The notes: a model not told the origin generated them from the letters alone. 64,000 nucleotides of DNA from Candidatus Latescibacterota bacterium (GCA_963422735.1 OY730476.1:2592001-2656000), one strand, 5' to 3'; positions 15,734 through 55,769 are shown, counted from the stretch's first letter. Numbers and translations are program-made.

Positions 15734-15809
15734 ACAGCCTCTCTTTATTGCTCAAACGACTTATCCATTAGTTAAAATACGACTATATGACAATCCATAG
15801 AGATGAATA

Positions 15810-17798: not shown

Positions 17799-17974
17799 GA
17801 AAATCCTCCTCTGCCCGGCATGGCAGCACATAGGCCCTAGCCCCTCAAGGCCCTTTGGGTTCTATTGACCGCGCAGATATTCGTCTGATTTGGCCGCATT
17901 GGGGGACCAGTACCTCATGTCCAACCTCCCTTGTTTATGGCTTCTTCAACTAAAACGAGGAAAATATAGAATTT

Positions 17975-18085
17975 GGGCACACTCCTGATTGTTGCCCGGC
18001 GAGTACTCCGCCACCACCGGCAGCACGACGGCTTTATCGACGCCGCATTCGTCCATATTGGAGGTCGGTGCCGAGGCTGGGATTG
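17975..18085 (-). pseudogene. amidohydrolase (Amidohydro_2) N-terminal remnant
   Basis: Minus strand reads ...NMDECGVDKAVVLPVVAEYSPGNNQECA, the MDxxGVDxAV motif, and breaks off at the AT-rich block boundary. Confidence 0.55.
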
Positions 18086-36246: not shown

Positions 36247-36268
36247 ACCGAACAGGGGAGACTTGAAA

Positions 36269-37303
36269 ATGAAAGCGTTGAAACTCATTGCAGTGCTAGG
36301 GTTGGCCCTCTTGCTGGCGCAACCTGGGGTCGCCGATGTGCGCAAGTCTGGCCTGACCGGTGCCGCGTTTCTCAAGATTGGCGTGGGGGCTAGGCCGGTC
36401 GCGCTCGGCTCGGCCTATACGACCGTAGCTGGCGACGTCCACCAGATGTTCTGGAACCCGGCCGGTGCGGCCCTGAGCGGCGGCGAAAGCCAAGTGCTGC
36501 TGTCGCACAACTCGTGGATCGCGGATTTGTCGCACGACGCCATCGGATTCGCGCGCGATATGGGCGACATGGGCACCTTGGGCATTGGCGTGGTGACGCT
36601 CGGGTTGAGCGACATTGCCGCCGACCGCGACGTGGTGCCGCAGTTCGTACTCGATGCGGGAACGTTCGCACCCAACGATGCCGAGACCTCGGGCACGTAC
36701 AACTACCGAGATCTGGCCGTGGGTGCGACGTGGGCGCGCAACATTACCGACAGACTCAACTTAGGGGTGACTGGCAAGATCGTGAGTCAGACCATCGATG
36801 GCGTCAGTGCCACCGCGTACGCGGCTGATTTCGGCGCGCTCTACCGCGTCAATTCCACGTACACTATCGGCGCTCGGATCAACAATCTGGGCAGCGATCT
36901 GACGTTCTACGACATCGGTGCGCCACTGCCGCTGATATTCAGCATCGGCGCGGCCGCCGCCATCCTCGACGACCCAAGCAGCGGCATGAAAGTGACCCTG
37001 CTCGCCGATGCCACCAAGCCGCAAGATGCCGAGCAGCTAGTCTACGCGGCGGCCGAGGTGGAGCTTTTCGACATGCTCCGGCTCCGCTCCGGCTACAAGC
37101 TCAACTACCAAGGCATCGAGGACGACAAAGTCGATGAGGTTAGCGGTACGGTCGTTGCGGCCGGCCGCAGCGAGGAGGGCCTGACGGCTGGGCTGGGCCT
37201 CGAATTGGGCATGGCCGATTACGCGGCCACGGTCGATTACGCCTTCACCTCGTTTGGTATCCTCGACAGCGTGCATCAGTTTTCCTTACTGTTCCGCTTC
37301 TGA
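36269..37303 (+). CDS. PorV/PorQ (UPF0164) family outer-membrane protein
   Basis: AAFLKIGVGARPVALGSAY...MFWNPAG; VDYAF..FGIL..VHQFSL. Confidence 0.85.
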   Translation: MKALKLIAVLGLALLLAQPGVADVRKSGLTGAAFLKIGVGARPVALGSAYTTVAGDVHQMFWNPAGAALSGGESQVLLSHNSWIADLSHDAIGFARDMGDMGTLGIGVVTLGLSDIAADRDVVPQFVLDAGTFAPNDAETSGTYNYRDLAVGATWARNITDRLNLGVTGKIVSQTIDGVSATAYAADFGALYRVNSTYTIGARINNLGSDLTFYDIGAPLPLIFSIGAAAAILDDPSSGMKVTLLADATKPQDAEQLVYAAAEVELFDMLRLRSGYKLNYQGIEDDKVDEVSGTVVAAGRSEEGLTAGLGLELGMADYAATVDYAFTSFGILDSVHQFSLLFRF

Positions 37304-38847: not shown

Positions 38848-38943
38848 GGGCGTTTGGGACTTAATGTGTTTTTGCTGGTGTATAGTATAGTATCGAGGGT
38901 TTTTAGACAGTTTCTTAAAGACAGTAAGGAGATTTCGGAAGTG

Positions 38944-41655
38944 ATGCAGACTATCCGTTTTACCCTAATTACCGCCATCCTTTTTTTAGGGATTGTTTCT
39001 CAAGGCGAAGCTTATACCTACCATTGGGAGATAGACGAGACGCTAGAGGGTACTGAAAGTGCAAGTCTCATTCAGCCCGTACAAGTGATACTGTTAGGTG
39101 AAGTGGTGGAGGTTGCGCCGCATAGTGCCTCTTTGCATTTGATGGAGAAGTATTCTGTGCATCTTGGTGCTGAATGGAGCGCAAGACAGGCTTATAGCTT
39201 ATTCCAAACTTTTGAATCCGTACCGCAAGAAACAAACGATCCTTACGATAAGGAGCCCACAGTGCCACTCTCTGTGTGGAAATTAACCGACCGCCACCTA
39301 GAAAATGACATTGTGGTGGAATTGCGAGACGGGGAGCAGATAGTCACTGTTGCTCGGGAAGCGTTTACATACGCGGAGCCACTTTTAGCCGAAATTGATG
39401 GTGTGCGAGGCAGGTTTTTCTCCAAAAGGCTCCATCGTGCCGTAGTTAGATTTGTAACCGATGGCGGTGCCGATCGACGTGCGCTTGAGCGCATATTACA
39501 AGAGTGCTACGCAGTCAGTCTAAACGTTCCTGACTATCGTGAACTCACAAAGTACACAACCGGCGAAGGTGAAGGTCGGTTTATGCCCTTCAAAAACGAA
39601 GAGCTCATGGCCCTTGCCTCCATGCTGGAGGAGTTCCCGCAGGGCATGCACCATACGCCGGGGCTGAACTACTTGGTTCGTCGCTTGGATGGCACACCTC
39701 ATCCCCTTTATCCAGTCGCAGGTGCCGTTGCGTGGACCAAGGAGGGCTACATAGAATTTATGGAGTCTGCTTTCAAGGAGGCTGGTCCAGCCTTCATCTA
39801 CCGCTTGATTCTACATGAAAAGGCTCACTTCTTATGGGAGCACCTGTTTGACGAACAACTCAAACAGGACTGGATCGAACTCGGCGGATGGTATAGAACT
39901 TCAGAGGGGACAAATCAAGATTCTGAAGCTGGTTATGCGGTCTCAGGCGACGCGGATGACTGGGCAACGACCAAGCAGACTGAGTTTGTCTCTGCGTATG
40001 CCCATCAGCACAACCCGAATGAAGATATGGCAGAGAGTATCAGTTTCTACGTTGTAAACCCTGATAAGTTGCGCTCGCGGGCACCGGCAAAATATGAGTT
40101 TATACAAAACCGGGTCATGCACGGTACGCGCTATATATCGCAGATCCGTTCGGACTTGACGTTTGAGGTATACAACCTCTATCCCGATATCGTGTATCCG
40201 GGACGAATTATACGAGTTGACATACAGGTCGATGGCCAGCCCGAGGAGGATAAGGAGATAACGATAGAGCTTGAACTTCACAGGGAAAACGATTTCGACA
40301 CGGCCCAAGCATTCCCTCTCCGAGTCTTCAGTGAAAAAGGCTCTTTCTTTGATGTCTGGCTTGACCCAATTGACTCTAATGGAAGACGCGTCAATGCGGG
40401 ATATATTTTGCGCGGGCATAAGGCTCTCTCCAAACATGCGGCGAAGGGCTATTGGCGACCCGATCAGATTACGCTCCGAGATGCCCTAGGCAATGAGCGG
40501 CACGAATCCCAAGTCGATTTCGGGTGGAAACTCTATGTTGATAATCCGCTCGCAGATGACGAAGCACCGGTTTATGTCAAAGATTCAATGAAACTCTCTT
40601 TGTTGGAAGGAACGGAAGCCGGAAGGACTTACCAAATTCTGACCGCCCGTTGGCAACTTTTTGAAGAGACGGGTATCGAGGGTGTCTTAGCAATGCTGAA
40701 CGACGCGAGTTCTGAAACCTACTCTCGTCGTTCGGAAAACTGGGGAGAGTACGATCCAGAAACCAGCGAAGCGAGTGTTGAACTCGTAATTCCCGATTAC
40801 TTCCCAAGCGGTATCTGGAAGCTCAACTTCATTTTAATGGAGGATATTGCCTTAAACACTCGGGGTGTATATTTCACGGACCCAAGGCATGGTTTAAGAG
40901 ACGAAGACATAGTAATTGATGAATTGCCTGCCTCTATTAATATCCAGACAACAAATCCAGATACTACCCCGCCTGTATTAGATTTAAATCAAATTACAAT
41001 TCAGGCAGAACCGACCAATATAGAAGCACCAAACGGCGAAACAAAGATTGATATTACCTTTAGGGCCAAGGATAATATCAGTGGATACAGAGCGACGGAC
41101 ATGCTTTTACGCGACCCCCAAGGCGTAGAGCATTTTTTTAGACACCACAGCCCCGACTTTTACAAGGTCTATTTCTCAGGGGATCCGACGGTCTATCAGA
41201 CCTACGAGCAAACCATTATTTTGCCAGTCGGCAGCGTCCCTGGTGTATGGGGACTTGCTGAAATGACGGTGTGGGACAAGGCGCAGAACAAGTTTCTGGC
41301 CGACTTTACTGAAATCGTCCGCTTTGAGGTCGAACCAGCGAGTGCCAAACTGTTGACGACGGCCCAAGAGTTGTCCGGTGGTCCGCAATTGCATCAGAAC
41401 GCGCCCAATCCGTTCAACAGCCAGACCGTCATTTCGTACTTCCTCTTGGAACCAGATTCGGCGCACTTAGAGGTGTTCGCGTTGACCGGGCAGCGGGTAG
41501 CGATTTTGCGTCAAGGTCCGCAGCAAGCAGGCCGCTACCGCCTCCACTGGGACGGTCGGGACAGCGAGGGCCGCCCTCTAGCCAGCGGCATCTATCTGTA
41601 TCGACTGGTGACCGCCGAGGGTGTTCTGACGCGCAAGCTCACTCTGCTGCGGTGA
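38944..41655 (+). CDS. secreted zinc metallopeptidase (HExxH) with C-terminal FlgD/T9SS-type CTD
   Basis: Signal peptide; ILHEKAH (39814-39828); FVSAYA..NPNEDMAES; QNAPNPFN...WDGRD...ASGIYLYRL...KLTLLR. Confidence 0.8.
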   Translation: MQTIRFTLITAILFLGIVSQGEAYTYHWEIDETLEGTESASLIQPVQVILLGEVVEVAPHSASLHLMEKYSVHLGAEWSARQAYSLFQTFESVPQETNDPYDKEPTVPLSVWKLTDRHLENDIVVELRDGEQIVTVAREAFTYAEPLLAEIDGVRGRFFSKRLHRAVVRFVTDGGADRRALERILQECYAVSLNVPDYRELTKYTTGEGEGRFMPFKNEELMALASMLEEFPQGMHHTPGLNYLVRRLDGTPHPLYPVAGAVAWTKEGYIEFMESAFKEAGPAFIYRLILHEKAHFLWEHLFDEQLKQDWIELGGWYRTSEGTNQDSEAGYAVSGDADDWATTKQTEFVSAYAHQHNPNEDMAESISFYVVNPDKLRSRAPAKYEFIQNRVMHGTRYISQIRSDLTFEVYNLYPDIVYPGRIIRVDIQVDGQPEEDKEITIELELHRENDFDTAQAFPLRVFSEKGSFFDVWLDPIDSNGRRVNAGYILRGHKALSKHAAKGYWRPDQITLRDALGNERHESQVDFGWKLYVDNPLADDEAPVYVKDSMKLSLLEGTEAGRTYQILTARWQLFEETGIEGVLAMLNDASSETYSRRSENWGEYDPETSEASVELVIPDYFPSGIWKLNFILMEDIALNTRGVYFTDPRHGLRDEDIVIDELPASINIQTTNPDTTPPVLDLNQITIQAEPTNIEAPNGETKIDITFRAKDNISGYRATDMLLRDPQGVEHFFRHHSPDFYKVYFSGDPTVYQTYEQTIILPVGSVPGVWGLAEMTVWDKAQNKFLADFTEIVRFEVEPASAKLLTTAQELSGGPQLHQNAPNPFNSQTVISYFLLEPDSAHLEVFALTGQRVAILRQGPQQAGRYRLHWDGRDSEGRPLASGIYLYRLVTAEGVLTRKLTLLR

Positions 41656-41703
41656 TCGGAGCACCTTGGATTTATTAGTGGACCTGATGGAGGAAACTAG
41701 AAA

Positions 41704-41914
41704 ATGAAAAAGCTGCCATGGGCGGCAAGGCATGTATTTTCGAGCTACGAGTGACGGTTGGAACCGTCGTAGGACTTTTGGCAGCCGGTCGCCCGCAGAG
41801 CTTCTGAAAGCCTACCTCCCGTACCTTGACTTGGAAGATATAGGTAGGCCTAGCTCTGCCTATGCCGCATAGCGGGTTGAAGCACGAGAAGTTGCCTTAG
41901 CCCATGGCGATTGA
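41704..41914 (+). pseudogene. second DUF433 antitoxin, pseudogene
   Basis: GGAGG RBS, MKKLP [deletion] MGGKACIFELRVTVGTVVGLLAAGR [frameshift] ELLKAY.PYLDLEDI...AYAA*RVEAREV. Confidence 0.75.
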
Positions 41915-41987
41915 GTACGCCGGGGAGCACACAAATATCCCAAATTTCGCCTCCGAGCGTCAACCAAGAGTGGATGTATCCTAGAAG

Positions 41988-44900
41988 ATGCCCGATGGAA
42001 GCCTCAGAGTAAGCCTCCGGGTGTTGTGCCCGGGGGCTTGCCTTTTCTTGGAAGCCTTGCTACTCACAAGCCCAGCGGTTGCCGCCGGGTCCGATGCGGA
42101 GGCGAGTCTGCGGCGCACGGTAGAGGCGTTGTCCGCACCTGCCTCGCGGATGACGGGCTATCCGGGGGCTGCGGTAGCCCGCGAGTGGCTGGTCGCCGAG
42201 CTAGAGAGCTTGGGGATAGCAGAATTCTACCGGCATGAGTTCCCGGTGTTGGTACCGATCGACGAAGGGTTCTGGCTCGAATGCGGCGAGGAATCCCTCC
42301 GATTGTTCGGCGTCTGGCCCAATTTGGTGCGGACGCCGACTCTGCCCCTTGGTGGGATTGAGGCCGAATTGGTGTACGGTGGGGACGGACGGCTACTCGA
42401 AGGGCAACCGGTGGCCGGGCGGATCGTCCTGCTCGATTATGCCTCGGGCTCGGCTTGGGTGGACGCGTTTCACTTGGGGGCGGCGGCCGTGGTGTTTTTG
42501 GAATCGACAGGTGCCCATCGCAAGGAAGCCGAGCAGAAATTCCTCGACGTGCCGGCAGATTTGCCGCGGCTTTATGCGCGCAAAGACGTGGCGGAACGCT
42601 TGCGGATGCTGGAAAGGTCGCGGGCGCAGGTGCGCTTGCGGGGGGCGATGGCGTGGCGGGAGGTGACCGCCCAGAATCTGATCGCCGTGGTCCCTGGGCG
42701 AGATGCGACATTGAGGGAGGAGATCGTCTTCCTCGCCGCGCATTACGACGCTGTGTCGCCGGTGCCCGCGTTAGCGCCGGGAGCTGAGCAAGCGGCAAGT
42801 GCGGCCGCGCTCTTGGAATTGGCCCGGGGGTTTGCCAAGTGGCCGCCCAAGCGCACGGTCGCGTTGCTGTGGACGGCCGGGCACTTCCAGAACATGGCGG
42901 GTATGCGCCATTTTGCACCGTTGTTGCTGGCGGCCGCGCGGCTGCGGGAGGGCGAAGTGGACAGGTCCGCGCTTTTGCAGCGGCTCAGTGCGCTGGAGAC
43001 GCGCTTTTTGGTGGGCTTGGATCTGTCGTCGCACAGCCCGCTGCTCGGGGCGTTCAAGCCGCGAGCTCCGTATCGCGTCTCATTGCTCGCGCCGCCCATC
43101 ACTAATCGGTTGCTAAAGCTGGTAACGGCGTACGAGGATTCCGCGTTGGGGGGCAAGCAGGTGCTGGTCAATGGCCTGAAGCAGGACTTTGCCCGCCAAG
43201 GCTTGGGGGGAATGGGGCTGACGGTGCCGTTGGACGCGGCGGTAGCAGCCCTCGCAGGATGTCCGGCGTTGGCCTTTTGCACGGTCAACGACAGCCGCGC
43301 GCGCTTTGACGCGCCCGACGATGACCCTGCGGCGGTGCGCTTTGACTGGTTGGCCGATCAAGTCGCGTTGCTGCGGGCCGTGCTGCCCGCGCTTATTGAC
43401 GACCCGGAGTTGGAACCGTGGGCTTGGGGCAACGATGCGTTTGGTACCATTCGCGGGGAGGTGGTCCACTACGGGCCGCGCAGCTATCTGCCGGATCAGC
43501 CTACGGCCGGGGCGTTGGTGCGGGTGCGGCTGCGCCAGCCGACGTTGGCTGGGGTGCGGCCGGATTTTTGGGCGGCGACGGATGATTCGGGACGATTTGC
43601 CATTCCCGGGGTCGAGTCTGGCATCATTTACACGAAGCCGGTGCGGTTGGAGGCGTATCGGCTCGATGCGGAGACCGGAGCGGTGACGGATGCGCCGGAC
43701 TGGGGGATCAATGGGGAGCGCAAGTTGCCCGGCCGTGCGCTGACGGTGCGGATGGATAGTGCCGAGGAAGAGGTGCAGATCGTCACCGCACCACTGCGGG
43801 GGACGACGCTATTTGGAATTTTTGATCCGCGCAATTTGTTGACCTTGGAGCGCGTCCAAGCGATTGACGCGGCACTGGAAGCCGAGCCGGTAGCGTACGG
43901 AGCTTGTCTGCCGCTGACGGCTCCAGAAATGGAGTTGTTCAGCTACGAAAATCGGGTGGGGTCGTGGACGGAGCCGGTCGGCGTGCTTTTTACGCCTCCT
44001 GCTAAGCGGTTCAAGGTCGTGATGGCGACAGGCCGCTATGGGTTGGGGCGACGTCTGCTGTTGCTCAATGGGACGGGGGATGTTCCGAGCGGGGTGGGTT
44101 ATGCCGTTGATGGGAAGGGGCGCGTCGTGGAAACGGTGTATCGGGTGGCTGCCGATATGCACATGCTCAATGGCGAGCGGATTGACCGGCTGGAGCGACA
44201 CAGCGTCCGCAATGGGCGGCTGGCGGCGTTTCACGAGCGATCGGCCGAATTGCTGGCAGAAGCAGAAACGGCGCGCGCTGAGCATCGGCACCGAGACTTT
44301 GTCGATCGGGCGCGGCGTGCTTGGGCGCTGGCCGCGGCGGCTTATCGGGATGTCGAGCGGACGCAAGCTGGGGTGGTGCAGGGCGCACTCTTTTTGTTGG
44401 CCGTGCTGATTCCCTTTGCCCACTTTGCCGAGCGTTTGGCATTTGGCTTTGCCGACTTGCGGCGGCAGGTATTGGGGTATTTCGCGCTCTTTCTCGTTGG
44501 CTTTGTCGCCCTGCGCTATGTGCATCCGGCCTTTGAGTTGTCGATCTCGCCGGCGATTATTCTGCTCGGCTTCGTCATCCTAGCCTTGGGAATTTTAGTA
44601 ACGGCCTTAGGAATGTCGCGATTGAATCGAGAGTTGCAGGCGTTGGGCCCTAGGCGTGAGCAAATCGCGGTGCAGCGGTCGGGTGCGGTGCTGACTTCGG
44701 TCGCCGTGGGATTGGCGCATTTGCGGCGGCGGCCGTGGCGCACGGGACTGACCTGCGCGACGCTGGTGCTGTTGACCTTTGCCGTGCTGTCCTTCACGTC
44801 GATCCGCGCTGCGCTGCACACGAATTGGATTGCGATTGGCTCGGACGCGGCATACGAGGGCGCGTTGGTGCGGATGCCGGGCTGGCAGGCCATGGAGATG

Positions 44901-46403
44901 GAAGGCTACGACCTGTTGCGCGATTGGTTTGGCGATGAGCAGGTCGCGCCGCGCGCATGGCTGTCGGTGGGATCGCTGGCGTCGTCCTACCGAGTCGAGA
45001 GGGATGACGTAGAGGAGCGAGCGGTTGGGGTCTGGGGGTTTGTCGGGTTAGTGGCGCAAGAGGAGGATTTGGTCGGGCCGGAGGTGGTAGCCGGGCGGTG
45101 GCTGCGGCCCGGGGAAGAGGACGCCTGTCTGTTGCCGGTAGGATTGGCGGATTCTTTGGGGGTAAGCACCGAGAAATTGGGGCAGGAGCGGGTGCGAGTC
45201 TTTGGGGAAGTATTTCGGGTTGTTGGGTTGCTAGCAGATGACGCGCTGGACCGGCTCGATCTGAATGGCGAGCCGCTGACTCCATTGGATCCAGAGGCGC
45301 AACAGCCTTCGGAAGCGGAAGTGGGACGTGGGCAGGGGGGGAAGTTGCGGCCGTTTGCCCATTTGCCCGCGTCGGCGACGCCGGTTTTGCCGTTTGCCGC
45401 GCTGATGCGGTGGGAAGGAGTGCGGCTGGCATCGGTGGGGATCCGATTGGATGGGACGACGGAGGGCGTCACAACTCGCGGTGCGCTGGCAGATCTGGCG
45501 CAGACGTTGGATTTGAACCTGTTCGCCGGCCTCGGGGGGCAGCGTTTGCTCGTCAATTCGGTTGGGGTGGCGTCGGTGTCGGGATGGGGGTCGTTGATCG
45601 TGCCACTGCTGATCGCCGCGTTGATCGTGTTCAACACCATGCTCGGGGCCGTGTACGAGCGGACGCGGGAAATTGGTACCTTTAACGCGGTCGGCTTAGC
45701 TCCCGGGCACGTCAGTGGGCTGTTCATGGCGGAGGCAGTGGCGTTGGGAGTGGTCGGCACGGTCGCTGGATATTTGCTCGGACAAGGCGCGGCGCAGCTT
45801 TTGAACCAAGGGGGACTTTTGCCCGGGCTGGAACTGAATTACTCGTCGCTGGGGGCGGTGCTCACCGTTGGCGCGATCGCGCTGTTGGTGGTGGCGTCGG
45901 CGCTCTATCCGGCGCACATGGCCGGGCGGATCTGTACGCCGGGGATTGAACGGCGGTGGAAGCTGCCGGTCGTCGAGGGCGAGCATTTGCATGTGCAACT
46001 GCCCTTCTCGCTAGCGCGGCGCGAAGCACTCGGCATGGCGGCGTTCCAGGCAGAATCGTGGGCAGCAAATCAGGAGCAGTCTATCGGCGCGGGATTTTAC
46101 GTCGAAGCCTTGCAGGTGGAGCAGATAGGGAAGAAGGTGCGCGTGGCGGCGCAGGTGTGGTTGGCACCGTTTGACCAAGGCGTGGTGCAAAAGACCGTGA
46201 TGGAGATAGGGCCGGGGGTGGACCCGCACTATTGCGATATTCACGTTGACCTGGCTTTGGTGGCTGGGGATCTGGCGACGTGGCAGCGAGTGGTGCGCAC
46301 CTTTTTGGACGATGTGCGCAAGCAGTTTTTGATCTGGCGCACCTTGGCAGCGGATAGCCGCCGCTACTACGCTGAGCAGTTGCCACAGTGGGAGCGAGGC
46401 TGA
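41988..46403 (+). CDS. giant membrane protein: M28/PA-like (nicalin-like, degenerate) ectodomain fused to MacB/FtsX-type permease
   Basis: SRMTGYPG; PA insert; AHYDAVSPVPALAPGAEQ; TM block; RRRPWRTGLT; FtsX motif AVYERTREIG...VG. Confidence 0.8.
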   Translation: MPDGSLRVSLRVLCPGACLFLEALLLTSPAVAAGSDAEASLRRTVEALSAPASRMTGYPGAAVAREWLVAELESLGIAEFYRHEFPVLVPIDEGFWLECGEESLRLFGVWPNLVRTPTLPLGGIEAELVYGGDGRLLEGQPVAGRIVLLDYASGSAWVDAFHLGAAAVVFLESTGAHRKEAEQKFLDVPADLPRLYARKDVAERLRMLERSRAQVRLRGAMAWREVTAQNLIAVVPGRDATLREEIVFLAAHYDAVSPVPALAPGAEQAASAAALLELARGFAKWPPKRTVALLWTAGHFQNMAGMRHFAPLLLAAARLREGEVDRSALLQRLSALETRFLVGLDLSSHSPLLGAFKPRAPYRVSLLAPPITNRLLKLVTAYEDSALGGKQVLVNGLKQDFARQGLGGMGLTVPLDAAVAALAGCPALAFCTVNDSRARFDAPDDDPAAVRFDWLADQVALLRAVLPALIDDPELEPWAWGNDAFGTIRGEVVHYGPRSYLPDQPTAGALVRVRLRQPTLAGVRPDFWAATDDSGRFAIPGVESGIIYTKPVRLEAYRLDAETGAVTDAPDWGINGERKLPGRALTVRMDSAEEEVQIVTAPLRGTTLFGIFDPRNLLTLERVQAIDAALEAEPVAYGACLPLTAPEMELFSYENRVGSWTEPVGVLFTPPAKRFKVVMATGRYGLGRRLLLLNGTGDVPSGVGYAVDGKGRVVETVYRVAADMHMLNGERIDRLERHSVRNGRLAAFHERSAELLAEAETARAEHRHRDFVDRARRAWALAAAAYRDVERTQAGVVQGALFLLAVLIPFAHFAERLAFGFADLRRQVLGYFALFLVGFVALRYVHPAFELSISPAIILLGFVILALGILVTALGMSRLNRELQALGPRREQIAVQRSGAVLTSVAVGLAHLRRRPWRTGLTCATLVLLTFAVLSFTSIRAALHTNWIAIGSDAAYEGALVRMPGWQAMEMEGYDLLRDWFGDEQVAPRAWLSVGSLASSYRVERDDVEERAVGVWGFVGLVAQEEDLVGPEVVAGRWLRPGEEDACLLPVGLADSLGVSTEKLGQERVRVFGEVFRVVGLLADDALDRLDLNGEPLTPLDPEAQQPSEAEVGRGQGGKLRPFAHLPASATPVLPFAALMRWEGVRLASVGIRLDGTTEGVTTRGALADLAQTLDLNLFAGLGGQRLLVNSVGVASVSGWGSLIVPLLIAALIVFNTMLGAVYERTREIGTFNAVGLAPGHVSGLFMAEAVALGVVGTVAGYLLGQGAAQLLNQGGLLPGLELNYSSLGAVLTVGAIALLVVASALYPAHMAGRICTPGIERRWKLPVVEGEHLHVQLPFSLARREALGMAAFQAESWAANQEQSIGAGFYVEALQVEQIGKKVRVAAQVWLAPFDQGVVQKTVMEIGPGVDPHYCDIHVDLALVAGDLATWQRVVRTFLDDVRKQFLIWRTLAADSRRYYAEQLPQWERG

Positions 46404-46405
46404 AC

Positions 46406-48310
46406 ATGGCCGCGCTGCGCTTGGCATTGCTCATAGTCGGCATCACGGTCGCAAGTGGGTGGTTGCTCCAGCGCGTCGAGTTGCTGTACAACGGACCGCA
46501 TTTGGCCGGGGCCGGGAGTATGCCTGGGGCTCAAGTCTTTCTCGCCGTGCCATTAGGGGCTTTGGCGGCGGCTACCTTAATGCGTCGCTTGCTCGGCCCA
46601 GGGGATCGCGCGGTACTCTACGCCGCGCTGGCAATCGGGGTGTCGGCGACTGCTTCCGGCCTGATGCACCGCTTTTTGCCGGGCTTAGTGACGGGTTTCT
46701 ACGGGGGCTTTGCCCAGCCGACTGGCCCCTATTACCGCTTTCTGCAGGTCGTCCCGGACTGGCTGGTCCCGGGCGGTCCGAATGAGGCCCCGGCCATCGG
46801 GGCGTTTGAAGGAGGCGCGGCCGTGCCTTGGGGGGCGTGGCTGTGGCCGCTGGCCATGTGGACCGCATTTTTCGGCGCGTTTTTTCTGACCTGCTTTTGT
46901 TTGGTGTGGCTTTTGCGGCAACGCTGGCTGGAGACCGAGCGGTTGGGATTCCCGCTGCTTGAAGTACCTCGCGCTCTCATTGCCGGAGACCTGTTTGGCC
47001 AACGGCTGTTTTGGTGGGGCGCATTGGTGCCGGGCGCACTGTTGGGAATCAATGGGTGGAACCATTACGCGCCGTCTGTGCCCGAGATCGCCACGAGCTT
47101 GAACATGGTCGATTTCCTCCTCGATGACCCGTGGAAAGCCATGGCTCCCTTTGAGTCGCCGTTCTACTTCAAGTTTGTTCCCCTGTTGGTGGGCACGGCC
47201 TTTCTCGCACCCGTCGAGGTGTCGTTCAGCACGTGGTTTTTCTATCTGTTCACCCGTGTACAATTGCTAGTGGCGCATTTTCTCGGGCGACTCGAATATC
47301 GAGGCGACTTCATCCCCGGGCACGGATCGCCGTGGCTAGACTGGCCTAGTCACTTTCCTTTTTTTATGACCCAAGCGCGCGGCGGCTTGCTGTTTTTGGG
47401 GCTGTTCAGCCTGTGGTCAGCACGGCGGGCCTTGGCGGCGGCAGTCTCTTGGCGCAGCTGGACGACATGGGGGCTTGTGGCCGGGCTGCTGATGCTGTGG
47501 GTGTGGACTACGGCTTTGGGAATACCGCCGCTTATGGGCATCGCGGCGTTGTTGCTGGTGTTGCTGTTGGCGTTGACGTTTGCACGGCTGCGGGTCGACG
47601 GGGGCCTGCCTATTGTGGGAATGCCGCAGATCGTGGGCTACCTGTCCTTCGTGGCATTGGGGACCGGGGCCGGGCGTTTTACCGATGCGACCTACATGGG
47701 CTTTGGCTTTTTGGCGGTATTTGGCTTTACGATGATTGGGCTCTGGCCCGCCTTGCAATTTGAGGGGCTGAAGTTGGCAGAGATGCACGGGGTGTCGCCG
47801 CGTCGCTTGATTTGGGGAATGGTTTTGGGGCTCGTCGTTGGGCTGGGGGCTGGCTATGTATTTTCACTCGAAACGATCTACGAACACGGGCTTTTTGCCT
47901 TGCAGGAACAGGGTGGCGCACGGGATGAAGCACGCATTGGCCGCTACTACAACTACTTGTTCAAAGACGCCGGCACAGTGGATGGGGACACGGACTGGGT
48001 GCGCCTAGGATTTCACGCGGCCGGGGCGGGTTTTACCTATTTCTTAGCGTTGATGCGCCAGCACGTTCTCCGCTGGCCCTTACATCCCATGGGCTTTGTG
48101 TTTGGCACGGGTTTTGGCGGGCTGGTGTGGGGGTCGGTGTTGTGCGGCTGGCTGTGCAAGTGGCTGGCGGTGCGCTACGGCGGTGCACAAACTTATCGGC
48201 GGGTCATGCCGTTTTTCTTGGGAATGATTTGTGGAGAGGTCGCGATGCGGTTGTTGTGGGCCGCGGTCGCACTGTGGCGGGGCGAGATGGGGGGAGGATA
48301 CCGGCCGTAA
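46406..48310 (+). CDS. DUF6785/DUF6784-type membrane protein
   Basis: WLETERLGFPL, RWPLHPMG, YRRVMPFFLGMICG; starts 2 nt after the upstream stop. Confidence 0.75.
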   Translation: MAALRLALLIVGITVASGWLLQRVELLYNGPHLAGAGSMPGAQVFLAVPLGALAAATLMRRLLGPGDRAVLYAALAIGVSATASGLMHRFLPGLVTGFYGGFAQPTGPYYRFLQVVPDWLVPGGPNEAPAIGAFEGGAAVPWGAWLWPLAMWTAFFGAFFLTCFCLVWLLRQRWLETERLGFPLLEVPRALIAGDLFGQRLFWWGALVPGALLGINGWNHYAPSVPEIATSLNMVDFLLDDPWKAMAPFESPFYFKFVPLLVGTAFLAPVEVSFSTWFFYLFTRVQLLVAHFLGRLEYRGDFIPGHGSPWLDWPSHFPFFMTQARGGLLFLGLFSLWSARRALAAAVSWRSWTTWGLVAGLLMLWVWTTALGIPPLMGIAALLLVLLLALTFARLRVDGGLPIVGMPQIVGYLSFVALGTGAGRFTDATYMGFGFLAVFGFTMIGLWPALQFEGLKLAEMHGVSPRRLIWGMVLGLVVGLGAGYVFSLETIYEHGLFALQEQGGARDEARIGRYYNYLFKDAGTVDGDTDWVRLGFHAAGAGFTYFLALMRQHVLRWPLHPMGFVFGTGFGGLVWGSVLCGWLCKWLAVRYGGAQTYRRVMPFFLGMICGEVAMRLLWAAVALWRGEMGGGYRP

Positions 48311-50277
48311 TGACCGACGAGTTGACTAGCTACCGCGACCTGATGCAGGCCCCGACGCGCTTTCGCGAGGGCTTTACTGTGCGCACTGTGGCCGGGGCGT
48401 TTTTCGTCGGCTTTATCATGATGCCCGGTGCCATTTACATGGGCCTGATTGCCGGCGCATCGTTCGGCGCGGCCGCCGAGTGGGTGACCATCATCCTGTT
48501 TTCCGAACTGGCGCGGCGTTCCTTTTCCTCGCTGACGCGCCAAGAGATTTACCTGATCTACTACATTGCCGGTGGCTTGGCTGGCGTCATCGGCGGCACC
48601 ATGCTGGCCGGGGGACCGTTTGGACAACTCGTGTGGAACCAGTACCTCGCGCAGTCGCAGGCTGCGGCTGGGTTTGGCATTGCTGAGCACATCCCGGAAT
48701 GGATCGCGCCGCCTGTCGGTTCAGATGCGCTGGTCGGGCGCAGCTTTTTGCACCGGGCGTGGATTCCGCCGGTAGCCGTGCTAGTCGCCTCGCAGGTTTT
48801 GTCGCGGGTTGAGTGGTTCACGCTCGGCTACATCCTCTTTCGGGTCACGTCCGATGTAGAGCGCTTGCCCTTCCCGTTGGCACCAGTAGCCGCGCAGGGG
48901 GCGACGGCCCTTGCCGAGAGCGACGAGGGGCAGGATAGCTGGCGGTGGCGGGTTTTCTCGGTGGGCATGGGGATTGGTTTACTGTTCGGCGCGGTGTACG
49001 TGGGCTTGCCCGCGCTGACTGGATTGATCGCCAGCGATCCCATCGTCCTGTTGCCTATTCCTTGGATTGATCTCACTCGGACTACAGAAGAGTTTTTACC
49101 GGCCGCACCCTTGGGCATTGGTACGGACCTAGGCTTGGTGCTGTTGGGGATGGTGCTGCCGTTTTGGATAGTCGTCGGTACATTTGCCGCGGCCATGGTC
49201 CACGCCTTGGGCAGCCCGGTTCTCTATCAAGTCGGCGCGCTGACGCACTGGCGGCCGGGCATGGACGCGATTCTGACGAATTTCGCCAACGACATCGACG
49301 TGTGGATGAGCGTGTACATTGGCGCGGGGGCGGCCGTGGGCGCGATTGGCTTGTTGCACGCCGTGCTGTCGGTGCGGGCCTCGCGCCGTCAGGGCAGGCA
49401 CCGCCCGTTACAGGATACGCCGGCCGGGCGGGGCGACTTCCCGTTGTGGATAGCGATTGTCGGATATGCACTATCGACGTTGGCCATGATCTGGCTCTGC
49501 GTGTTGCTCCTAGACGACGACGAATTTCCGCTGATCTTTTTGCTGATCTTCGGCTTCGTGCTGACGCCGGTGATTTCGTACGTCAATGCGCGCATGGCCG
49601 GGTTGACGGGGCAGTTGGTCAGTTTCCCGCTACTGCGCGAAGGCGCTTTTATCTTGAGCGGCTACAAAGGCATAGATATATGGTTCGCGCCCATTCCATA
49701 CGCCGACCACGGCCGGCGCGCTCAGCTCTTCCGCGAAGTGGAGCTGACCGGCACGCGCTTCTCGTCGATTATCAAGGCCGAGCTGTTGCTGTTGCCGCTG
49801 AGCTTGGTCTGCGGCTTTGTGTTTTGGTCGCTAGTCTGGCAGATGGAGCCGATTCCCTCGCCGACCTTCCAATACGCCCAGACGTATTGGCACCTCATTG
49901 CGTTGCGCCAGTGCTTGTGGTACTCGGCGACTTTGGGCGGGGAGACCTTGTTCGACCAAGCTATTAAGGGGTGGTGGATCTTGGGCAGCTTTGTGCTGGC
50001 CGGGGGTACTTTTGGATTTATGTCGTGGTTGGGGTTGCCGATTTCGCTGGTGTACGGGTTTGTGCGCGGCCTTTCGGGTCTGCCGCACTTGCTGATCCCC
50101 GAGATGGCCGGTGCCCTGCTGGCGCGCTATTGGCTGGAGCCGCGCTTTGGGACTCAGCAGTGGCGGCAGTACGCGCCGGTGTTGTTGGCTGGATACGCTT
50201 GCGGGATGGGCTTGGTGGGCATGTCGGCCGTGGCCATTGCCTTAATATCCAAGTCGGTGACCCAATTGCACTATTGA
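48310..50277 (+). CDS. OPT-superfamily-like peptide transporter
   Basis: TAATG overlap; EGFTVRTVAGA, EWVTIILFSE, DVERLPFPLAPV; very hydrophobic. Confidence 0.7.
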   Translation: MTDELTSYRDLMQAPTRFREGFTVRTVAGAFFVGFIMMPGAIYMGLIAGASFGAAAEWVTIILFSELARRSFSSLTRQEIYLIYYIAGGLAGVIGGTMLAGGPFGQLVWNQYLAQSQAAAGFGIAEHIPEWIAPPVGSDALVGRSFLHRAWIPPVAVLVASQVLSRVEWFTLGYILFRVTSDVERLPFPLAPVAAQGATALAESDEGQDSWRWRVFSVGMGIGLLFGAVYVGLPALTGLIASDPIVLLPIPWIDLTRTTEEFLPAAPLGIGTDLGLVLLGMVLPFWIVVGTFAAAMVHALGSPVLYQVGALTHWRPGMDAILTNFANDIDVWMSVYIGAGAAVGAIGLLHAVLSVRASRRQGRHRPLQDTPAGRGDFPLWIAIVGYALSTLAMIWLCVLLLDDDEFPLIFLLIFGFVLTPVISYVNARMAGLTGQLVSFPLLREGAFILSGYKGIDIWFAPIPYADHGRRAQLFREVELTGTRFSSIIKAELLLLPLSLVCGFVFWSLVWQMEPIPSPTFQYAQTYWHLIALRQCLWYSATLGGETLFDQAIKGWWILGSFVLAGGTFGFMSWLGLPISLVYGFVRGLSGLPHLLIPEMAGALLARYWLEPRFGTQQWRQYAPVLLAGYACGMGLVGMSAVAIALISKSVTQLHY

Positions 50278-50283
50278 CGCCCG

Positions 50284-51267
50284 TCAGCCGCGCAGGGCTT
50301 GGCGGAGGCCAAAAGCGCACTTAATCCAGCGGCTCTTGTAGCCGACAACCGCGTAGTACGGCACTAAATCGCAGCCAAAGCCGCGTTTGAAGAAGGCGAT
50401 GCTCGGTATATTGGCACCGACGAAGTCAAAGCATTTGTGATCGACCGCGTCCCAGTACTGCCAGTACAACAGCGAGATCGCGCCCGTGTGGTTGTAAGCA
50501 GGGTCGGCTCCTGCGGCCCAAGCATAGGTGGTGTCGAAGCCCTCGACAAAGGCGACGACCGCGGCCGGCCCGTCCGGGGAGGCGATTGCGTACGCCTGGG
50601 CCAGACCAGCCTCTAGGGCCGCGGCGACAAAGCGCTCGGCTGTGGCCGTGGCGACCGGGGGGCCGCCAGCTTGGTTGGCGTAGATGGCCTCGTACTGCCG
50701 CCGAAATAGTGCGACATCGCTAGTGGGCCGCAGTTGGTAGCCGAGTTTTTCAGCCTTGCGAATGGCAGTGCGCGTGCGGCGCTCGGCTCGCTCCCATAGT
50801 GCGTTGCTATCGCCGAGAGGCAGCCTATAGGTATAGCGCAGGTGCGCGTCGCAGCCCTGCCAGGTGAAGGGGCGCACATCGGCGATGGCCGGCGCGTGGG
50901 ATAGGAAGACGCGGTCGTAGTGCTTGGCGAGATGGTCGAGCAGGTGCGCACAAGCGCGGTGTTGAGCCGCTTCGCCTTTGGCTGGTCCCTTGCCGGCTAC
51001 CGGGGCGAGCAGCAGGCCGGTGTAAGGCGTCAGCTCGGGAGTTTCGAGGCGGTAGAGGCCCATGCGTCGGCGAGCTAGGCCGCTGATGCCAGCGACGAGA
51101 TGGCCATTGCGGTAGCAGCCGAGGCGGTGAATTTGGCCGCCAGCGGCCGTGGCTGCACAGCAAAGCCACTCGCTGGTGGAAAATACAGTGCCGCCGATGG
51201 CTTGGCGGACGAAGGCGTCCCAAGCGGTATCGTCGGCGACGAGGCGGATTTCAAAGGTATCGGCCAC
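50284..51267 (-). CDS. GNAT family (FemAB/BioF2-like) acyltransferase
   Basis: WDAFV...GTVF; RTAIRKAEK; FDFVGA...FFKRGFG. Confidence 0.8.
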   Translation of the reverse strand: MADTFEIRLVADDTAWDAFVRQAIGGTVFSTSEWLCCAATAAGGQIHRLGCYRNGHLVAGISGLARRRMGLYRLETPELTPYTGLLLAPVAGKGPAKGEAAQHRACAHLLDHLAKHYDRVFLSHAPAIADVRPFTWQGCDAHLRYTYRLPLGDSNALWERAERRTRTAIRKAEKLGYQLRPTSDVALFRRQYEAIYANQAGGPPVATATAERFVAAALEAGLAQAYAIASPDGPAAVVAFVEGFDTTYAWAAGADPAYNHTGAISLLYWQYWDAVDHKCFDFVGANIPSIAFFKRGFGCDLVPYYAVVGYKSRWIKCAFGLRQALRG

Positions 51268-51648: not shown

Positions 51649-52641
51649 ATGCAGATGTACTACGACAACGACGCCAACCTCGATCTGCTCTCGGACAAAA
51701 CCGTAGCCGTCATAGGCTACGGCAGCCAAGGTCACGCGCATTCGCTCAACCTTGCGGAGAGCGGCGTCAAGGTGGTGGTGGGCCTACGCGCGGGTAGCCA
51801 GCGGTGCGCTGAGGCCGAGGCCGCCGGGCTGGAGGTGGCCAACGTGGCCGAGGCCAGCAAGCGGGGCGATATCGTGGTGATCTTGATCAACGACGAGGTC
51901 CAGAAAGCCGTGTACGAAGCCGATATTCGTCCCCATCTCGAAGCGGGCAATGCCCTCGCCTTTGCCCACGGGTTTAACATCCACTTTGGGCAGGTCGTGC
52001 CGCCGGCCGATGTCGATGTGTTCATGGTCGCGCCCAAAGGGCCGGGGCACTTGGTGCGCCGCGTGTACCAGCAGGGGGGTGGCGTGCCGGGCTTGTTGGC
52101 CGTTTACCAAGACGCCACCGGCCGAGCGCACGAGGTTGGCTTGGCCTATGCCAAGGGGATTGGCTGCGGCCGGGCCGGGGTTATTGAAACGACCTTCCGC
52201 GAGGAGACCGAGACCGACTTGTTCGGCGAGCAGGTGGTGCTGTGCGGCGGTTTGACCGAGCTGATCCGCGCTGGGTTCGACACGCTCGTCGAGGCCGGAT
52301 ACCAGCCCGAGGTCGCTTATTTCGAGTGTTTGCACGAGGTCAAGCTGATCGTCGATCTGATCTACGAGGGCGGCATCGCCAACATGCGCTCGTCGATTTC
52401 GGATACCGCAGAATTTGGCGACTTGACGCGCGGACAACGGGTGATCACCGAGCAGACGCGAGCAGCAATGAAGCAAATTCTCGCCGATGTGCAGAATGGT
52501 CACTTTGCGCGGGAATGGCTGGCCGAAAACCAAGTGGGCCGCCCGGTGTACAATGCGATCAAGCGCCGCGATTCCGAACACCTGATCGAAACCGTCGGCA
52601 CCCGACTGCGTGCAATGATGAGTTGGCTGGACGACAAATAG
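51649..52641 (+). CDS. ilvC: ketol-acid reductoisomerase
   Basis: [30 protein letters not shown]. Confidence 0.97.
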
Positions 52642-52802
52642 GACCACCTGAAAGCCCGAAAGGAGGTAAGCGCGATGGAACCCCTACTTAGCGAGTTGAG
52701 TTCCGATCCCGACCTTATATCGGTAGGTGATCTCTAAACGGCTGGAGGGGATCGGCTACCACGCGTACCACCGCATCTGGCCCGCCTAGGAAAGAACACA
52801 TC

Positions 52803-54338
52803 ATGGCGAATGCAAATCGCGTATATATTTTCGACACCACGCTGCGGGACGCCGAGCAGACGCCCGGGGCCTCGCTGACGGCTAAAGAAAAGCTGGAAAT
52901 TGCCCACCAGTTGGCGCGGCTGAAAGTCGATATTATTGAGGCCGGCTTTCCGGTGTCCTCCAACGAGGACTTCGAGGCCGTGCGCCGCATTGGGCAGGAG
53001 GTCGAAGGGCCGGTAATCTGTGGGCTGGCGCGCGCCGTGCCCAAGGACGTTGAGCGAGCGGGTGCGGCCCTTCAGGGCGCAAGCCGGCCGCGGATCCACA
53101 CCTTTATTGGCACATCGGATATTCAGCTTGCGGGCCAACTGCGCAAGGACCGGGAAGAGGTGCTGAAAATGGCGGTAGAGTCGGTGAAGCAGGCCAAGTC
53201 GTACTGTGACGATGTCGAGTTTTCCCCCTTGGACGCCACGCGTACTGATCCTAGCTACCTCAACGAAATCATCGCGGCGACCATCGCGGCCGGGGCGACG
53301 ACGATCAACATTCCCGACACGGTGGGTTATGCCGTGCCCGAAGAGTTTGGGGTGCTGATCGCCCAGATCCTCGCCGAGGTGCCCAACAGCGACGCGGCGA
53401 TCATCAGCGTCCACTGCCACGACGATCTGGGCATGTCGGTAATCAACACGCTCTCCGCCATCAAAAACGGCGCACGCCAAGCCGAATGCACGATCAACGG
53501 CTTGGGCGAGCGGGCCGGCAATGCCTCGCTGGAGGAGATCGTTCTGGCGCTGAAGACGCGCCAGGACTATTTCAAATTTGACACCCAAGTGGTCACCGAG
53601 GAAATCGTTCCCACCAGCCGGTTGGTCAGCCGCTTGATGGGGATCGCGGTCCAGCCCAACAAGGCGATCGTCGGTGCCAATGCCTTTGCCCACAGCTCGG
53701 GCATCCACCAAGATGGAGTGCTCAAGCAGCGCGACACTTTTGAGATCATGGAGCCGAAAGACGTCGGGCTGGACGATACCGAGATCGTGCTGACGGCGCG
53801 CTCGGGACGCGCTGCTCTGCGCCATCGGCTGGAGGTTTTGGGCTACGAGCTGAACAAAGAAGAACTGGACAAGGTGTACGAGGATTTCGTCGAGTTGGCC
53901 GACAAGAAGAAGGAGGTCTTCGACGAGGACCTGATTGAGATCGTCGGCGACTCGGACGAAACGACCACCTACTACGAACTCCAGTACTTGCATTCGGTCA
54001 GTGGCACCGGTACGGTGCCCTCGGCCACGGTGCGCATGCGCATCGGCGACGAGACCGTCCAGCAGTCGTCTTGGGGCGACGGTCCGGTGGATGCGGCCTA
54101 TGCGGCCATTGGCATGGCCTGCGGCACTGAGGCCCGACTCGACGACTACGTCATCCGCGCCATTACCTCCGGCAGTCAAGCGCTGGGCGAGGTAACGGTG
54201 CATCTGTCGAAAAACGGAGAAAAGGCGCGGGGACGAGGGGTTTCAACCGACGTCATTGAGGCCAGTGCGAGGGCTTACGTGGATGCGCTGAACCGCTTGG
54301 TCGCCAAGAGCACCAAAGAATCACTCCAGACAGTATAG
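52803..54338 (+). CDS. leuA: 2-isopropylmalate synthase
   Basis: FDTTLRD.EQ, HCHDDLG, GERAGN, HQDG; C-terminal regulatory domain GPVDA. Confidence 0.95.
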   Translation: MANANRVYIFDTTLRDAEQTPGASLTAKEKLEIAHQLARLKVDIIEAGFPVSSNEDFEAVRRIGQEVEGPVICGLARAVPKDVERAGAALQGASRPRIHTFIGTSDIQLAGQLRKDREEVLKMAVESVKQAKSYCDDVEFSPLDATRTDPSYLNEIIAATIAAGATTINIPDTVGYAVPEEFGVLIAQILAEVPNSDAAIISVHCHDDLGMSVINTLSAIKNGARQAECTINGLGERAGNASLEEIVLALKTRQDYFKFDTQVVTEEIVPTSRLVSRLMGIAVQPNKAIVGANAFAHSSGIHQDGVLKQRDTFEIMEPKDVGLDDTEIVLTARSGRAALRHRLEVLGYELNKEELDKVYEDFVELADKKKEVFDEDLIEIVGDSDETTTYYELQYLHSVSGTGTVPSATVRMRIGDETVQQSSWGDGPVDAAYAAIGMACGTEARLDDYVIRAITSGSQALGEVTVHLSKNGEKARGRGVSTDVIEASARAYVDALNRLVAKSTKESLQTV

Positions 54339-54350
54339 AGGAGATTGGAG

Positions 54351-55769
54351 ATGGGCAAAACCCTGTTGCACAAGGTTTGGGACGCGCACACCGTGCGCGA
54401 ATTGCCCTCTGGGCAGACGCAGTTGTTCGTTGGCTTGCATCTGGTCCACGAGGTGACCAGCCCCCAGGCCTTTGAGATGCTGCGGGAGCGCGGCCTCACC
54501 GTCCGCTTCCCGGGGCGCACCTTTGCCACTGTGGATCACATCGTGCCCACGGACTTGGTGCAGCGGCCGTTTATCGACGACTTGGCCGAAGAGATGATGG
54601 ATGCGATTGAGCAGAATACCGCCGAGTTTGAGATTCCGCTGTTCAACATCGACGATCAGCGCCAGGGGGTGGTCCACGTCATCGGCCCGGAACTGGGGTT
54701 GACCCAGCCTGGCATGACCATTGCCTGCGGCGATAGCCACACTTCCACGCACGGGGCCTTTGGCGCGGTGGCCTTTGGCATTGGCACCAGTCAAGTGCGC
54801 GATGTGCTCGCCACCCAGTGCTTGGCCATGGATCCGATCAAGGTGCGGCGGATCGAAATTAGCGGTGCGCTGAGCGAGGGGGTGTACGCCAAGGACGTCA
54901 TCTTGCACATCATCGGGCAGCTCGGGGTCCATGGGGGCGTTGGCTACGGCTATGAGTACGGCGGCCCAGTCATCGAGGCCATGTCCATCGAAGAGCGGAT
55001 GACGGTGTGCAACATGTCGATTGAGGGCGGTGCCCGGGTCGGCTACGTCAATCCCGATCAGACGACGTACGACTATCTCAACGGCCGGCCTCACGCGCCG
55101 GCCAACTTTGAGCACGCGGTCGATTGGTGGAAGTCCATGGCTTCGGACGCAGACGCCGAGTACGACGACCTAGTCCAAATTGACGGCCGCGAGATCGGCC
55201 CGACCGTGACGTGGGGCATCACGCCGGGCCAATCAGTCGGCATAGACCAAGCCCTGCCCGATCTAGGCGCTTTTGCCGACGCCGACCGCCCCACCGTACA
55301 GGAGGCCTTCGAGTACATGGACTTTGAGTCGGGGCAGAAGATCGCCGGTACCAAAGTAGATGTGGCGTTTATCGGCTCCTGCACCAACGGCCGGCTCTCG
55401 GATCTGCGCGAGGCCGCCCGGGTTGCTCGCGGGCGTAAGGTGGCCCCTGGCGTCCGCGCTCTTGTGGTACCTGGATCGCAGCAGGTGCGGGCCGCGGCTG
55501 AAGCCGAGGGCCTGCACGAGATCTTCGCCGAGGCCGGGTTCCAGTGGCGGGGGGCCGGTTGTTCCATGTGCCTAGCGATGAACCCCGACAAACTGCAGGG
55601 CCGCGAACTGTGTGCCTCGTCGTCCAACCGCAATTTCAAGGGCCGGCAGGGCAGTCCCACCGGCCGCACCCTGTTGATGAGTCCGGCAATGGTCGCGGCA
55701 GCAGCGGTGGCTGGCGAGGTGGCGGACGTGCGGGAATTGGTGGGGCCGTTTGGGGATTGTCAAAACTGA
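54351..55769 (+). CDS. leuC: 3-isopropylmalate dehydratase large subunit
   Basis: [34 protein letters not shown]. Confidence 0.97.

Follow-up and report, generated by a model that had tools for sequence, protein, structure and literature searches.

Three adjoining genes at positions 41,988 to 50,277 of a 64,000-nucleotide stretch of the genome of Candidatus Latescibacterota bacterium (GCA_963422735.1 OY730476.1:2592001-2656000; the window) likely encode one receptor/permease module of a type VII ATP-binding cassette (ABC) mechanotransducer, whose motor, together with two accessory proteins called here X and Y, is encoded elsewhere in the genome and would serve several such modules. The first gene encodes the giant, a permease subunit of FtsX type that bears a large head in the periplasm, and the other two encode permeases of the OPT superfamily or fold. 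Across genomes an ATPase, a small FtsX protein (mini-FtsX), X and Y co-occur with giants, and in other phyla they are operonic with them. The machine, in which a MacB/Lol-type ABC module is joined to OPT-fold permeases, is widespread and unstudied.

All three genes lie on the + strand. Gene 1 (41988-46403) is an open reading frame of 1471 amino acids (aa) with Pfam M28 and FtsX domains; gene 2 (46406-48310, 634 aa from its ATG) carries DUF6785 and DUF6784 and belongs to the OPT superfamily; gene 3 (48310-50277, 655 aa from its ATG) is the giant-specific partner, a permease with a predicted OPT/Yellow-Stripe fold. Genes 1 and 2 are 2 nt apart and genes 2 and 3 overlap by 1 nt (TAATG), and all three products are polytopic by hydropathy, so that the tight coupling and membrane character claimed in a first-pass annotation of the window are confirmed. 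A scan of 41400-50700 for promoters and terminators gave the same counts as shuffled sequence.

The permease half of gene 1 is, as judged from sequence and predicted structure, a genuine member of the type VII ABC permease family. Pfam FtsX (PF02687) matches residues 1204-1312 with 54.5 bits (cut-off 25.5), while MacB_PCD matches residues 919-1084 below threshold (17.6 bits, cut-off 27) and passes in the paralogue at L013 (34.6 bits). The FtsX module matched YtrF, MacB and LolF among PDB sequences (phmmer), and the motif YERTREIG after the second FtsX transmembrane (TM) helix aligns with ERTQEIG/ERTKEIG of YtrF and MacB. This is the coupling helix, the ATPase contact of type VII permeases, and its residues E1224, R1225, E1228 and I1229 are invariant in the alignment of giants (A1, also used as a profile), in which invariant columns were judged over 14 diverse relatives. 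An AlphaFold2 (AF2) model of residues 780-1471 (predicted local distance difference test, pLDDT, 73) matches MacB, LolCDE, HrtB, YtrF, YbbP, BceB and FtsX (E to 1e-12), a fold search with the C-terminal half returned exclusively type VII permeases, and against the isolated periplasmic domains of MacB and LolE the model reaches TMt 0.5-0.6. The database holds 270 relatives of gene 1 at E<=0.001.

Hydropathy gives gene 1 a signal/anchor and seven TM helices, arranged as an outer head of ~770 aa, three TM helices, four FtsX TM helices with an outer domain of ~260 aa between the first two, and a cytoplasmic tail of ~160 aa. On the + strand the signal/anchor occupies residues 8-26 (42009-42065) and the head residues 27-795 (42066-44372), with a PA-like insert, a degenerate M28 core (nt 42675-42917) and then beta-rich domains. 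The three extra helices follow at residues 796-874 (44373-44609), with invariant E815 and R816 (in FAERLAF), H846, P847 and F849. The first FtsX helix (921-939) and the MacB-type periplasmic core (940-1203), recognized by the weak MacB_PCD match and by the model, span 44748-45596, and the FtsX C-terminal domain with TM2-TM4 (residues 1204-1312), recognized by Pfam and by the YtrF/MacB alignment, spans 45597-45923. The protein ends in a family-specific cytoplasmic alpha/beta domain (residues 1313-1471, 45924-46400; AF2 pLDDT ~80-90) with the motif WLAPxDxG, of which W1391, L1392, A1393, P1394, D1396 and G1398 are invariant in A1.

Pfam Peptidase_M28 matches residues 230-310 of the head (34.4 bits, cut-off 21.3), and the fusion of an M28/PA ectodomain to a MacB/FtsX permease was thus correctly recognized at the first pass. 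In M28 peptidases the HxD motif, the bridging D and the EE motif provide the co-catalytic zinc ligands and the catalytic Glu. Aligned with the aminopeptidase 2ek8 (E 1.7e-5, PA region included), gene 1 keeps HxD and has EQ for DD and HF for EE, the two C-terminal M28 ligands lying outside this alignment; within A1, HxD reads YYD in 12 of 14 giants, and all 14 have HF or HH in place of EE. The domain is a catalytically degenerate pseudopeptidase, as had been proposed. Its matches to nicalin, at E 0.029 and 0.066, are not significant and extend for ~65 residues, where the stretches AHYDA and LLELAR align, so that the description of it as nicalin-like is best kept as an analogy.

It had been noted that no ATPase lies in or next to the operon, and locally this is true. 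PF00005 (ABC_tran) has no match in the window; the nearest strong match lies 65.6 kb from the FtsX domain of gene 1, and a weaker partial one (35 bits) ~41 kb from it. The genome is a single contig of 4.95 Mb (C1; G000) with six giants, none of which has an ABC_tran match within 17 kb, vs a distance of at most 4 kb for all 14 canonical FtsX matches. The local absence of an ATPase is therefore real but specific to giants. It favours an alternative in which the giant, the DUF6785 protein and gene 3 form an ATPase-free heteromer, driven by the proton-motive force through its OPT-fold subunits and using the FtsX module as a scaffold, with the motor genes being a separate, co-inherited system. The same alternative draws on loci from other species, in which an ATPase of this type was not found in 35 of the 47 with at least 6 kb of flanking sequence, on the giant's private C-terminal domain, which could replace an ATPase, and on the fact that OPT transporters are proton-coupled.

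Giants of other species nevertheless argue against an ATPase-free heteromer. Relatives of the giant occur at no fewer than 585 places (>=585) in a collection with one genome per species, and 80 loci from other species were scanned with profiles built here. An ATPase is present in 15 of the 80, and all 15 are closest to one ATPase of the present genome (L100:7084-7854; 59-72% identity). Mini-FtsX accompanies it in 11 of these 15 loci and is 37-53% identical to the protein at L100:6362-7063, which in the present genome stands directly upstream of that ATPase; together they form a motor pair at C1:4648362-4649853, 2 Mb from the window. Mini-FtsX (~230 aa) is of FtsX type but has hardly any periplasmic loop. 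The ATPase has intact Walker A, Q-loop, LSGGQ, Walker B and H-loop motifs; its best NCBIfam match is LolD (227 bits, below the cut-off of 307.75), and the ATPase of the darobactin exporter also ranks high in that list. In Armatimonadota the operon typically runs as at L037, from the giant and gene 3 through X (300 aa, assigned to no family) and the PqqD-like Y to mini-FtsX and the ATPase. Four Latescibacterota genomes have a second ATPase paralogue (59-63% identity) directly upstream of DUF6785, giant and gene 3, with no mini-FtsX there, and the ATPase orthologue remains with mini-FtsX elsewhere. This MacB/LolD-type ATPase is assigned as cognate by linkage and co-occurrence, and its binding to the giant is putative.

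Co-occurrence was determined by searching the same samples, 323 genomes of three phyla, with the A1 profile for the giant and a profile (A2) for mini-FtsX, whose orthologues score above 130 bits vs at most 95 bits for ordinary FtsX proteins. Of the 206 genomes with a giant, 197 also yielded mini-FtsX; the 117 without a giant yielded none. The 121 genomes of the own phylum comprise 101 with both, seven with the giant only and 13 with neither; the corresponding figures are 79, one (G167) and 21 for 101 Armatimonadota genomes, and 17, one (G230) and 83 for 101 Planctomycetota genomes, where some matches cover the FtsX part only, in longer frames. Mini-FtsX without the giant occurs in none of the three phyla. 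Giant-bearing genomes of further phyla have exactly one mini-FtsX in five of five cases, some far from the giant, and giant and mini-FtsX are operonic in about half of the Armatimonadota genomes (~10 kb or less apart in ~42 of 79, as read off match coordinates). Because an ATPase/mini-FtsX pair is linked to giants elsewhere and mini-FtsX follows the giant so closely, the original proposal of an ATPase-less, possibly proton-motive-force-driven system fails on its own terms, which counted a dedicated ATPase that consistently co-occurs with gene 1 as refuting. The ATPase-free heteromer is quite unlikely, given also the invariant coupling helix and the duplicated ATPase placed directly at giant loci that lack mini-FtsX. 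More generally, the lack of an ATPase gene beside an FtsX gene does not imply an ATPase-free system, a tempting error that is corrected here.

An orphan ATPase of LolD/MacB/FtsE type was also considered as a partner in trans. It is a 250-aa protein encoded at G000:C1:64867-65619 (L019:6868-7620), between uvrB and galE and with no permease beside it, and is 52.7% identical to the mini-FtsX-linked ATPase. It is retained only as a second candidate, since giant-linked ATPases are closer to the motor-pair ATPase (59-72% vs 52-58% identity); it might act in trans as a further motor, or belong with a different FtsX protein.

The accessory proteins follow the giant as well. X is a protein of ~330 aa for which an atlas search gives clusters of hypothetical proteins only; it is present in 78 of 80 giant-bearing and in none of 21 giant-less Armatimonadota genomes. 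Y is PqqD-like: the copy at L037:17407-17874 matches Pfam PqqD at 2.2e-12 (47.5 bits, cut-off 23.4), and its matches to the NCBIfam PqqD models for lasso peptides and pyrroloquinoline quinone (PQQ; E 1e-8 to 1e-7) stay below the cut-offs. In the present genome both are single-copy and lie directly behind a paralogous giant locus (C1:3357.6-3358.9 kb), Y being the copy at L013:1555-1986 (-) found by tblastn at 33-39% identity. Two Armatimonadota genomes (G195 and G216) represent a variant subgroup in which X was not found; their giants match from profile position ~670 onward, and their mini-FtsX-like matches, adjacent to the giant, are partial (176-180 bits, frames of 341-343 aa).

The presence of Y raises the possibility of a system for export or maturation of peptides resembling ribosomally synthesized and post-translationally modified peptides (RiPPs), in which Y would bind a cytoplasmic precursor, X would modify or chaperone it, and the ABC/OPT assembly would export it. 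The likeness of Y to the lasso-peptide and PQQ chaperones agrees with this, as do the export of peptides by MacB-type pumps and the resemblance of the ATPase to that of the darobactin exporter. We consider it very unlikely, however: no gene for a precursor peptide, radical-SAM enzyme, cyclase or protease is conserved in the 80 loci, six giants face a single X/Y pair in this genome, and DUF6785 paralogues that stand alone beside catabolic enzymes suggest import.

The two partners of the giant are related to each other. Gene 2 matches DUF6785 (1.9e-81, 274.6 bits, nt 46418-47890) and DUF6784 (9.8e-26, 90.3 bits, nt 48011-48286). For gene 3, searches of Pfam and NCBIfam gave no family at E<=5 other than a chance match to DUF4797, and thus none to OPT (PF03169), DUF6785 or DUF6784; a profile of 28 gene 3 relatives gave no match among PDB sequences at E<=10. 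Its AF2 model (pLDDT 83.2, pTM 0.86) has the OPT/Yellow-Stripe fold. The best Foldseek match is barley Yellow Stripe 1 (7wst_A; E 3.8e-11, TM score 0.63/0.68, ~670 columns, 14% identity), and 7wst_A and 7wsr_A are the only matches at E<=0.001 (E ~1e-10, prob 1.00, TM score 0.62-0.68), the remainder scoring ~0.1. This fold match supports the earlier description of gene 3 as OPT-like, and in the atlas its neighbours are clusters named "peptide transporter", with 15-33% of the proteins in them assigned to the OPT family.

Profile comparison (hhalign) of the gene 3 family with DUF6785/6784 gave 93.7%, E 1.9e-7 and 549 collinear columns, so that genes 2 and 3 are distant homologues. BLASTP of the two sequences alone was not significant (E 0.042); the homology needed profiles. 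It explains the E-R-L-x-F-P-L motif that the first-pass annotation saw in both, ERLGFPL at residues 177-183 of gene 2 (46934-46954, +) and ERLPFPL at residues 184-190 of gene 3 (48859-48879, +); both copies are real and are aligned with each other in the profile comparison, and D182, E184, L186 and P189 of gene 3 are invariant over the 28 relatives. The FAERLAF stretch in the first extra TM helix of the giant (window 44430-44450, residues ~812-820) resembles this motif, which may reflect chance or a shared membrane-interface contact.

DUF6785 has 42 Pfam matches in this genome, ~32 of them full length, an expansion that is unusually large for an uncharacterized OPT-superfamily transporter; gene 2 is the most divergent of the ~32 paralogues. 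A DUF6785 gene adjoins all six giants and a gene 3 paralogue five of the six, in varying gene order, and each of the five gene 3 paralogues stands beside a giant. One giant is fused in frame to DUF6785 and DUF6784 (2094 aa), and fusions of this kind (~2090-2160 aa) recur in 34 protein clusters with identities as low as 52%, which argues that OPT-fold permeases are physically tied to the giant. Two gene 3 paralogues carry additions: one of 1063 aa (L010:8610-11801, G000:C1:696609-699800) has two PDZ domains in a loop, and one of 806 aa (L013:2904-5324, -) has an insert of ~150 aa of unassigned kind. Five of the ~26 other DUF6785 loci were annotated and contain sulfatases, GFO/IDH/MocA and aldo-keto reductases, an SDR, a PhyH dioxygenase and a GH116 enzyme, as well as FG-GAP/ASPIC proteins and proteins sorted by the type IX secretion system (T9SS); from the catabolic enzymes among these neighbours, the solo DUF6785 proteins would seem to be stand-alone nutrient permeases.

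The association holds in other species. Of the 80 loci, 56 have flanks of 2.5 kb or more to either side, and in 50 of these an OPT-fold gene adjoins the giant: 21 have the full triplet, 18 gene 3 only and 11 DUF6785 only, the other six giants having neither partner. Gene 3 is adjacent in 49 of the 68 loci with a downstream flank. The exact triplet is thus conserved in just 21 of 56 loci. The idea of a heteromeric machine remains plausible on these counts and on the conserved fusion, and it is the part of the original proposal that made the machine self-contained, without an ATPase, that is lost.

A different use of the same parts would be an envelope-remodelling or signalling device in the style of FtsEX-EnvC, in which ATP would move the dead head, thereby activating or positioning a periplasmic enzyme, and the OPT-fold proteins would recycle or supply products. 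The combination of a type VII fold with a dead peptidase parallels FtsEX with its degenerate LytM factor EnvC, and 8tzk is among the fold matches. In four loci (L077, L081, L088 and L092) a protein of ~230 aa with an FtsN/DedD-like (SPOR-type) C-terminus directly follows the ATPase, and in the present genome SurA-like peptidyl-prolyl isomerases and secreted proteases are encoded nearby. Clustering of the neighbours of the 80 loci gave no conserved hydrolase partner, however, and transport is indicated by the tight coupling to full-size proteins of transporter fold, which in some cases are fused to the giant, so that we regard such a device as unlikely. In three other loci the ATPase is followed instead by a GGDEF diguanylate cyclase.

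If the trio is a receptor/permease module with a remote motor, the following mechanism may be envisaged. By analogy with LolC, LolE and LolD, the giant would pair with mini-FtsX under an ATPase dimer, and one motor module of ATPase and mini-FtsX would serve all six giants of the genome. ATP-driven movement of the dead-peptidase head might capture or release a peptide-like ligand, which the head would hand to the OPT-fold permeases, or it might gate them; X and Y would work on the cytoplasmic side. The substrate is probably peptide-like, as hinted by the OPT fold, the M28/PA head, the PDZ domains in a gene 3 paralogue, the PqqD-like Y and nearby secreted or M42 peptidases, and as to direction we lean towards uptake. 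That the system represents a hybrid class of primary and secondary transporter, in which an ABC mechanotransducer gates or loads OPT-fold permeases for substrate-specific uptake and one motor is shared in trans among six modules, is possible, with the balance tilted somewhat against it. A complex prediction of giant residues 890-1471 with mini-FtsX, made without controls, scored 0.28 vs a mark of 0.32 and was counted neither way.

Several observations weigh against a module served by a remote motor. The motor genes never stand beside a giant in this genome or its family, and the ATPase is missing from the 35 widely flanked loci mentioned above. Giants share a cytoplasmic C-terminal domain of ~160 aa that known type VII permeases do not have, and this domain could fill the site of the ATPase or take its place. 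Mini-FtsX was not detected in nine giant-bearing genomes, of which seven, from the own phylum, are 60-89% complete and two (G167 and G230) come from samples restricted to genomes at least 85% complete. The co-occurrence counts ignore kinship, so that relatives are not independent events: the 13 own-phylum genomes with neither gene belong to a single family and make up its entire sample, and kinship is not shown for Armatimonadota and Planctomycetota. The giant-adjacent DUF6785 proteins do not form a clade in a FastTree tree of 31 copies (30 full-length proteins of 600-730 aa and the DUF6785 part of the fusion): they require six changes, the same as shuffled labels, and the window copy is long-branched. 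A giant-specific DUF6785 subfamily was accordingly rejected, the giant-adjacent copies being scattered among solo copies, which makes gene 3 the giant-specific partner and lets gene 2-type partners look interchangeable; they may be only loosely attached to giants. Finally, we only infer the direction, the substrate, the stoichiometry and the heterodimer of mini-FtsX and giant.

Upstream of gene 1 the window encodes a PorV/UPF0164-like outer-membrane protein (36263-37303, +) and a protein of 933 aa (38854-41655, +) that resembles Zn metallopeptidases and carries a T9SS sorting domain at its C-terminus; the latter, a secreted protease, could be a candidate feeder of a peptide-handling system. 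A FemAB-like GNAT acetyltransferase gene (50284-51267, -) is convergent with gene 3, and beyond it lie branched-chain amino-acid genes (ilvC, leuA-like and leuC-like; 51649-55769). Further DUF6785 genes, all on the + strand, are found at 15891-17378 and 26038-27531 (full length) and at 20024-20371 (a fragment). The GC content rises from 0.49-0.55 (1-18000) to ~0.60-0.65 past ~18 kb, with a drop to 0.51-0.54 at 38-42 kb. The AT skew is -0.15 to -0.30 over the giant and OPT-fold genes (42000-50000) and over the DUF6785 genes at 16-18 and 26-28 kb, and such strongly negative values probably reflect the T-rich codons of membrane proteins.

A literature search found nothing on DUF6785/DUF6784, on FtsX with M28 and OPT/PqqD, or on a bacterial nicalin with FtsX, and the public names of gene 1 relatives are limited to "FtsX-like permease", "ABC transporter permease", "M28 family peptidase" and "hypothetical protein". 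The building blocks are of known kinds, and the novelty lies in their assembly and in the proposed sharing of an unlinked motor. If the proposal is correct, a large family of OPT-fold permeases (~32 copies here) works with a MacB/Lol-type ABC motor, and DUF6785/DUF6784, the unnamed families of gene 3 and X and a bacterial pseudo-M28 domain gain a first clue to their function. It would bear on nutrient capture by uncultured Latescibacterota, Armatimonadota, Omnitrophota, Gemmatimonadota and some Planctomycetota.

The closest known system by architecture is LolCDE, with the same FtsX-type fold of four TM helices, periplasmic domain between TM1 and TM2, coupling helix and LolD/MacB-type ATPase (fold matches E 1e-9), and with two unlike FtsX-type subunits, LolC and LolE, to which the giant and mini-FtsX would correspond if they form a heterodimer. 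In contrast to LolCDE, the giant has an additional head of ~770 aa, three TM helices and a cytoplasmic C-terminal domain, mini-FtsX has almost no periplasmic loop, there are OPT-fold partners, X and a PqqD-like Y, and the motor genes are unlinked. MacB of MacAB-TolC gives the best structure and sequence matches of the giant's permease module (5gko, 5lil), periplasmic core included, whereas the ATPase is unfused here; no membrane-fusion or outer-membrane partner of the MacAB-TolC kind is among the conserved neighbours of the 80 loci, in which no search was aimed at such partners. With FtsEX-EnvC the system shares a type VII ABC motor that would move a dead peptidase-like periplasmic factor, but here the dead domain is of M28/PA type and fused to the permease, and matches to the FtsX and FtsE models of NCBIfam fall far short of the cut-offs. 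Nicalin, in the BOS complex of the endoplasmic reticulum, likewise presents a membrane-anchored, degenerate M28-like luminal domain within a multi-subunit membrane complex; it differs in lacking an FtsX module, and the giant matches true aminopeptidases better (2ek8).

On the permease side, the gene 3 model superposes on OPT/Yellow-Stripe-like transporters (PF03169; HvYS1, 7WST/7WSR) over ~670 columns, but gene 3 differs in its low identity to them (14%), in giving no Pfam OPT match and in being an obligate neighbour of an ABC-type giant, and we know of no OPT protein that works with an ABC module. Group II energy-coupling factor (ECF) transporters and MsiK-type ATPases are shared energizing modules, and the likeness to them is one of logic only: the motor is encoded apart from several membrane modules, here one motor pair for six giants, and the folds are unrelated. 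If the proposed sharing is correct, type VII ABC systems acquire a new job, and the machine described here would be the type VII counterpart of the group II ECF transporters and the first case of ABC-OPT coupling.

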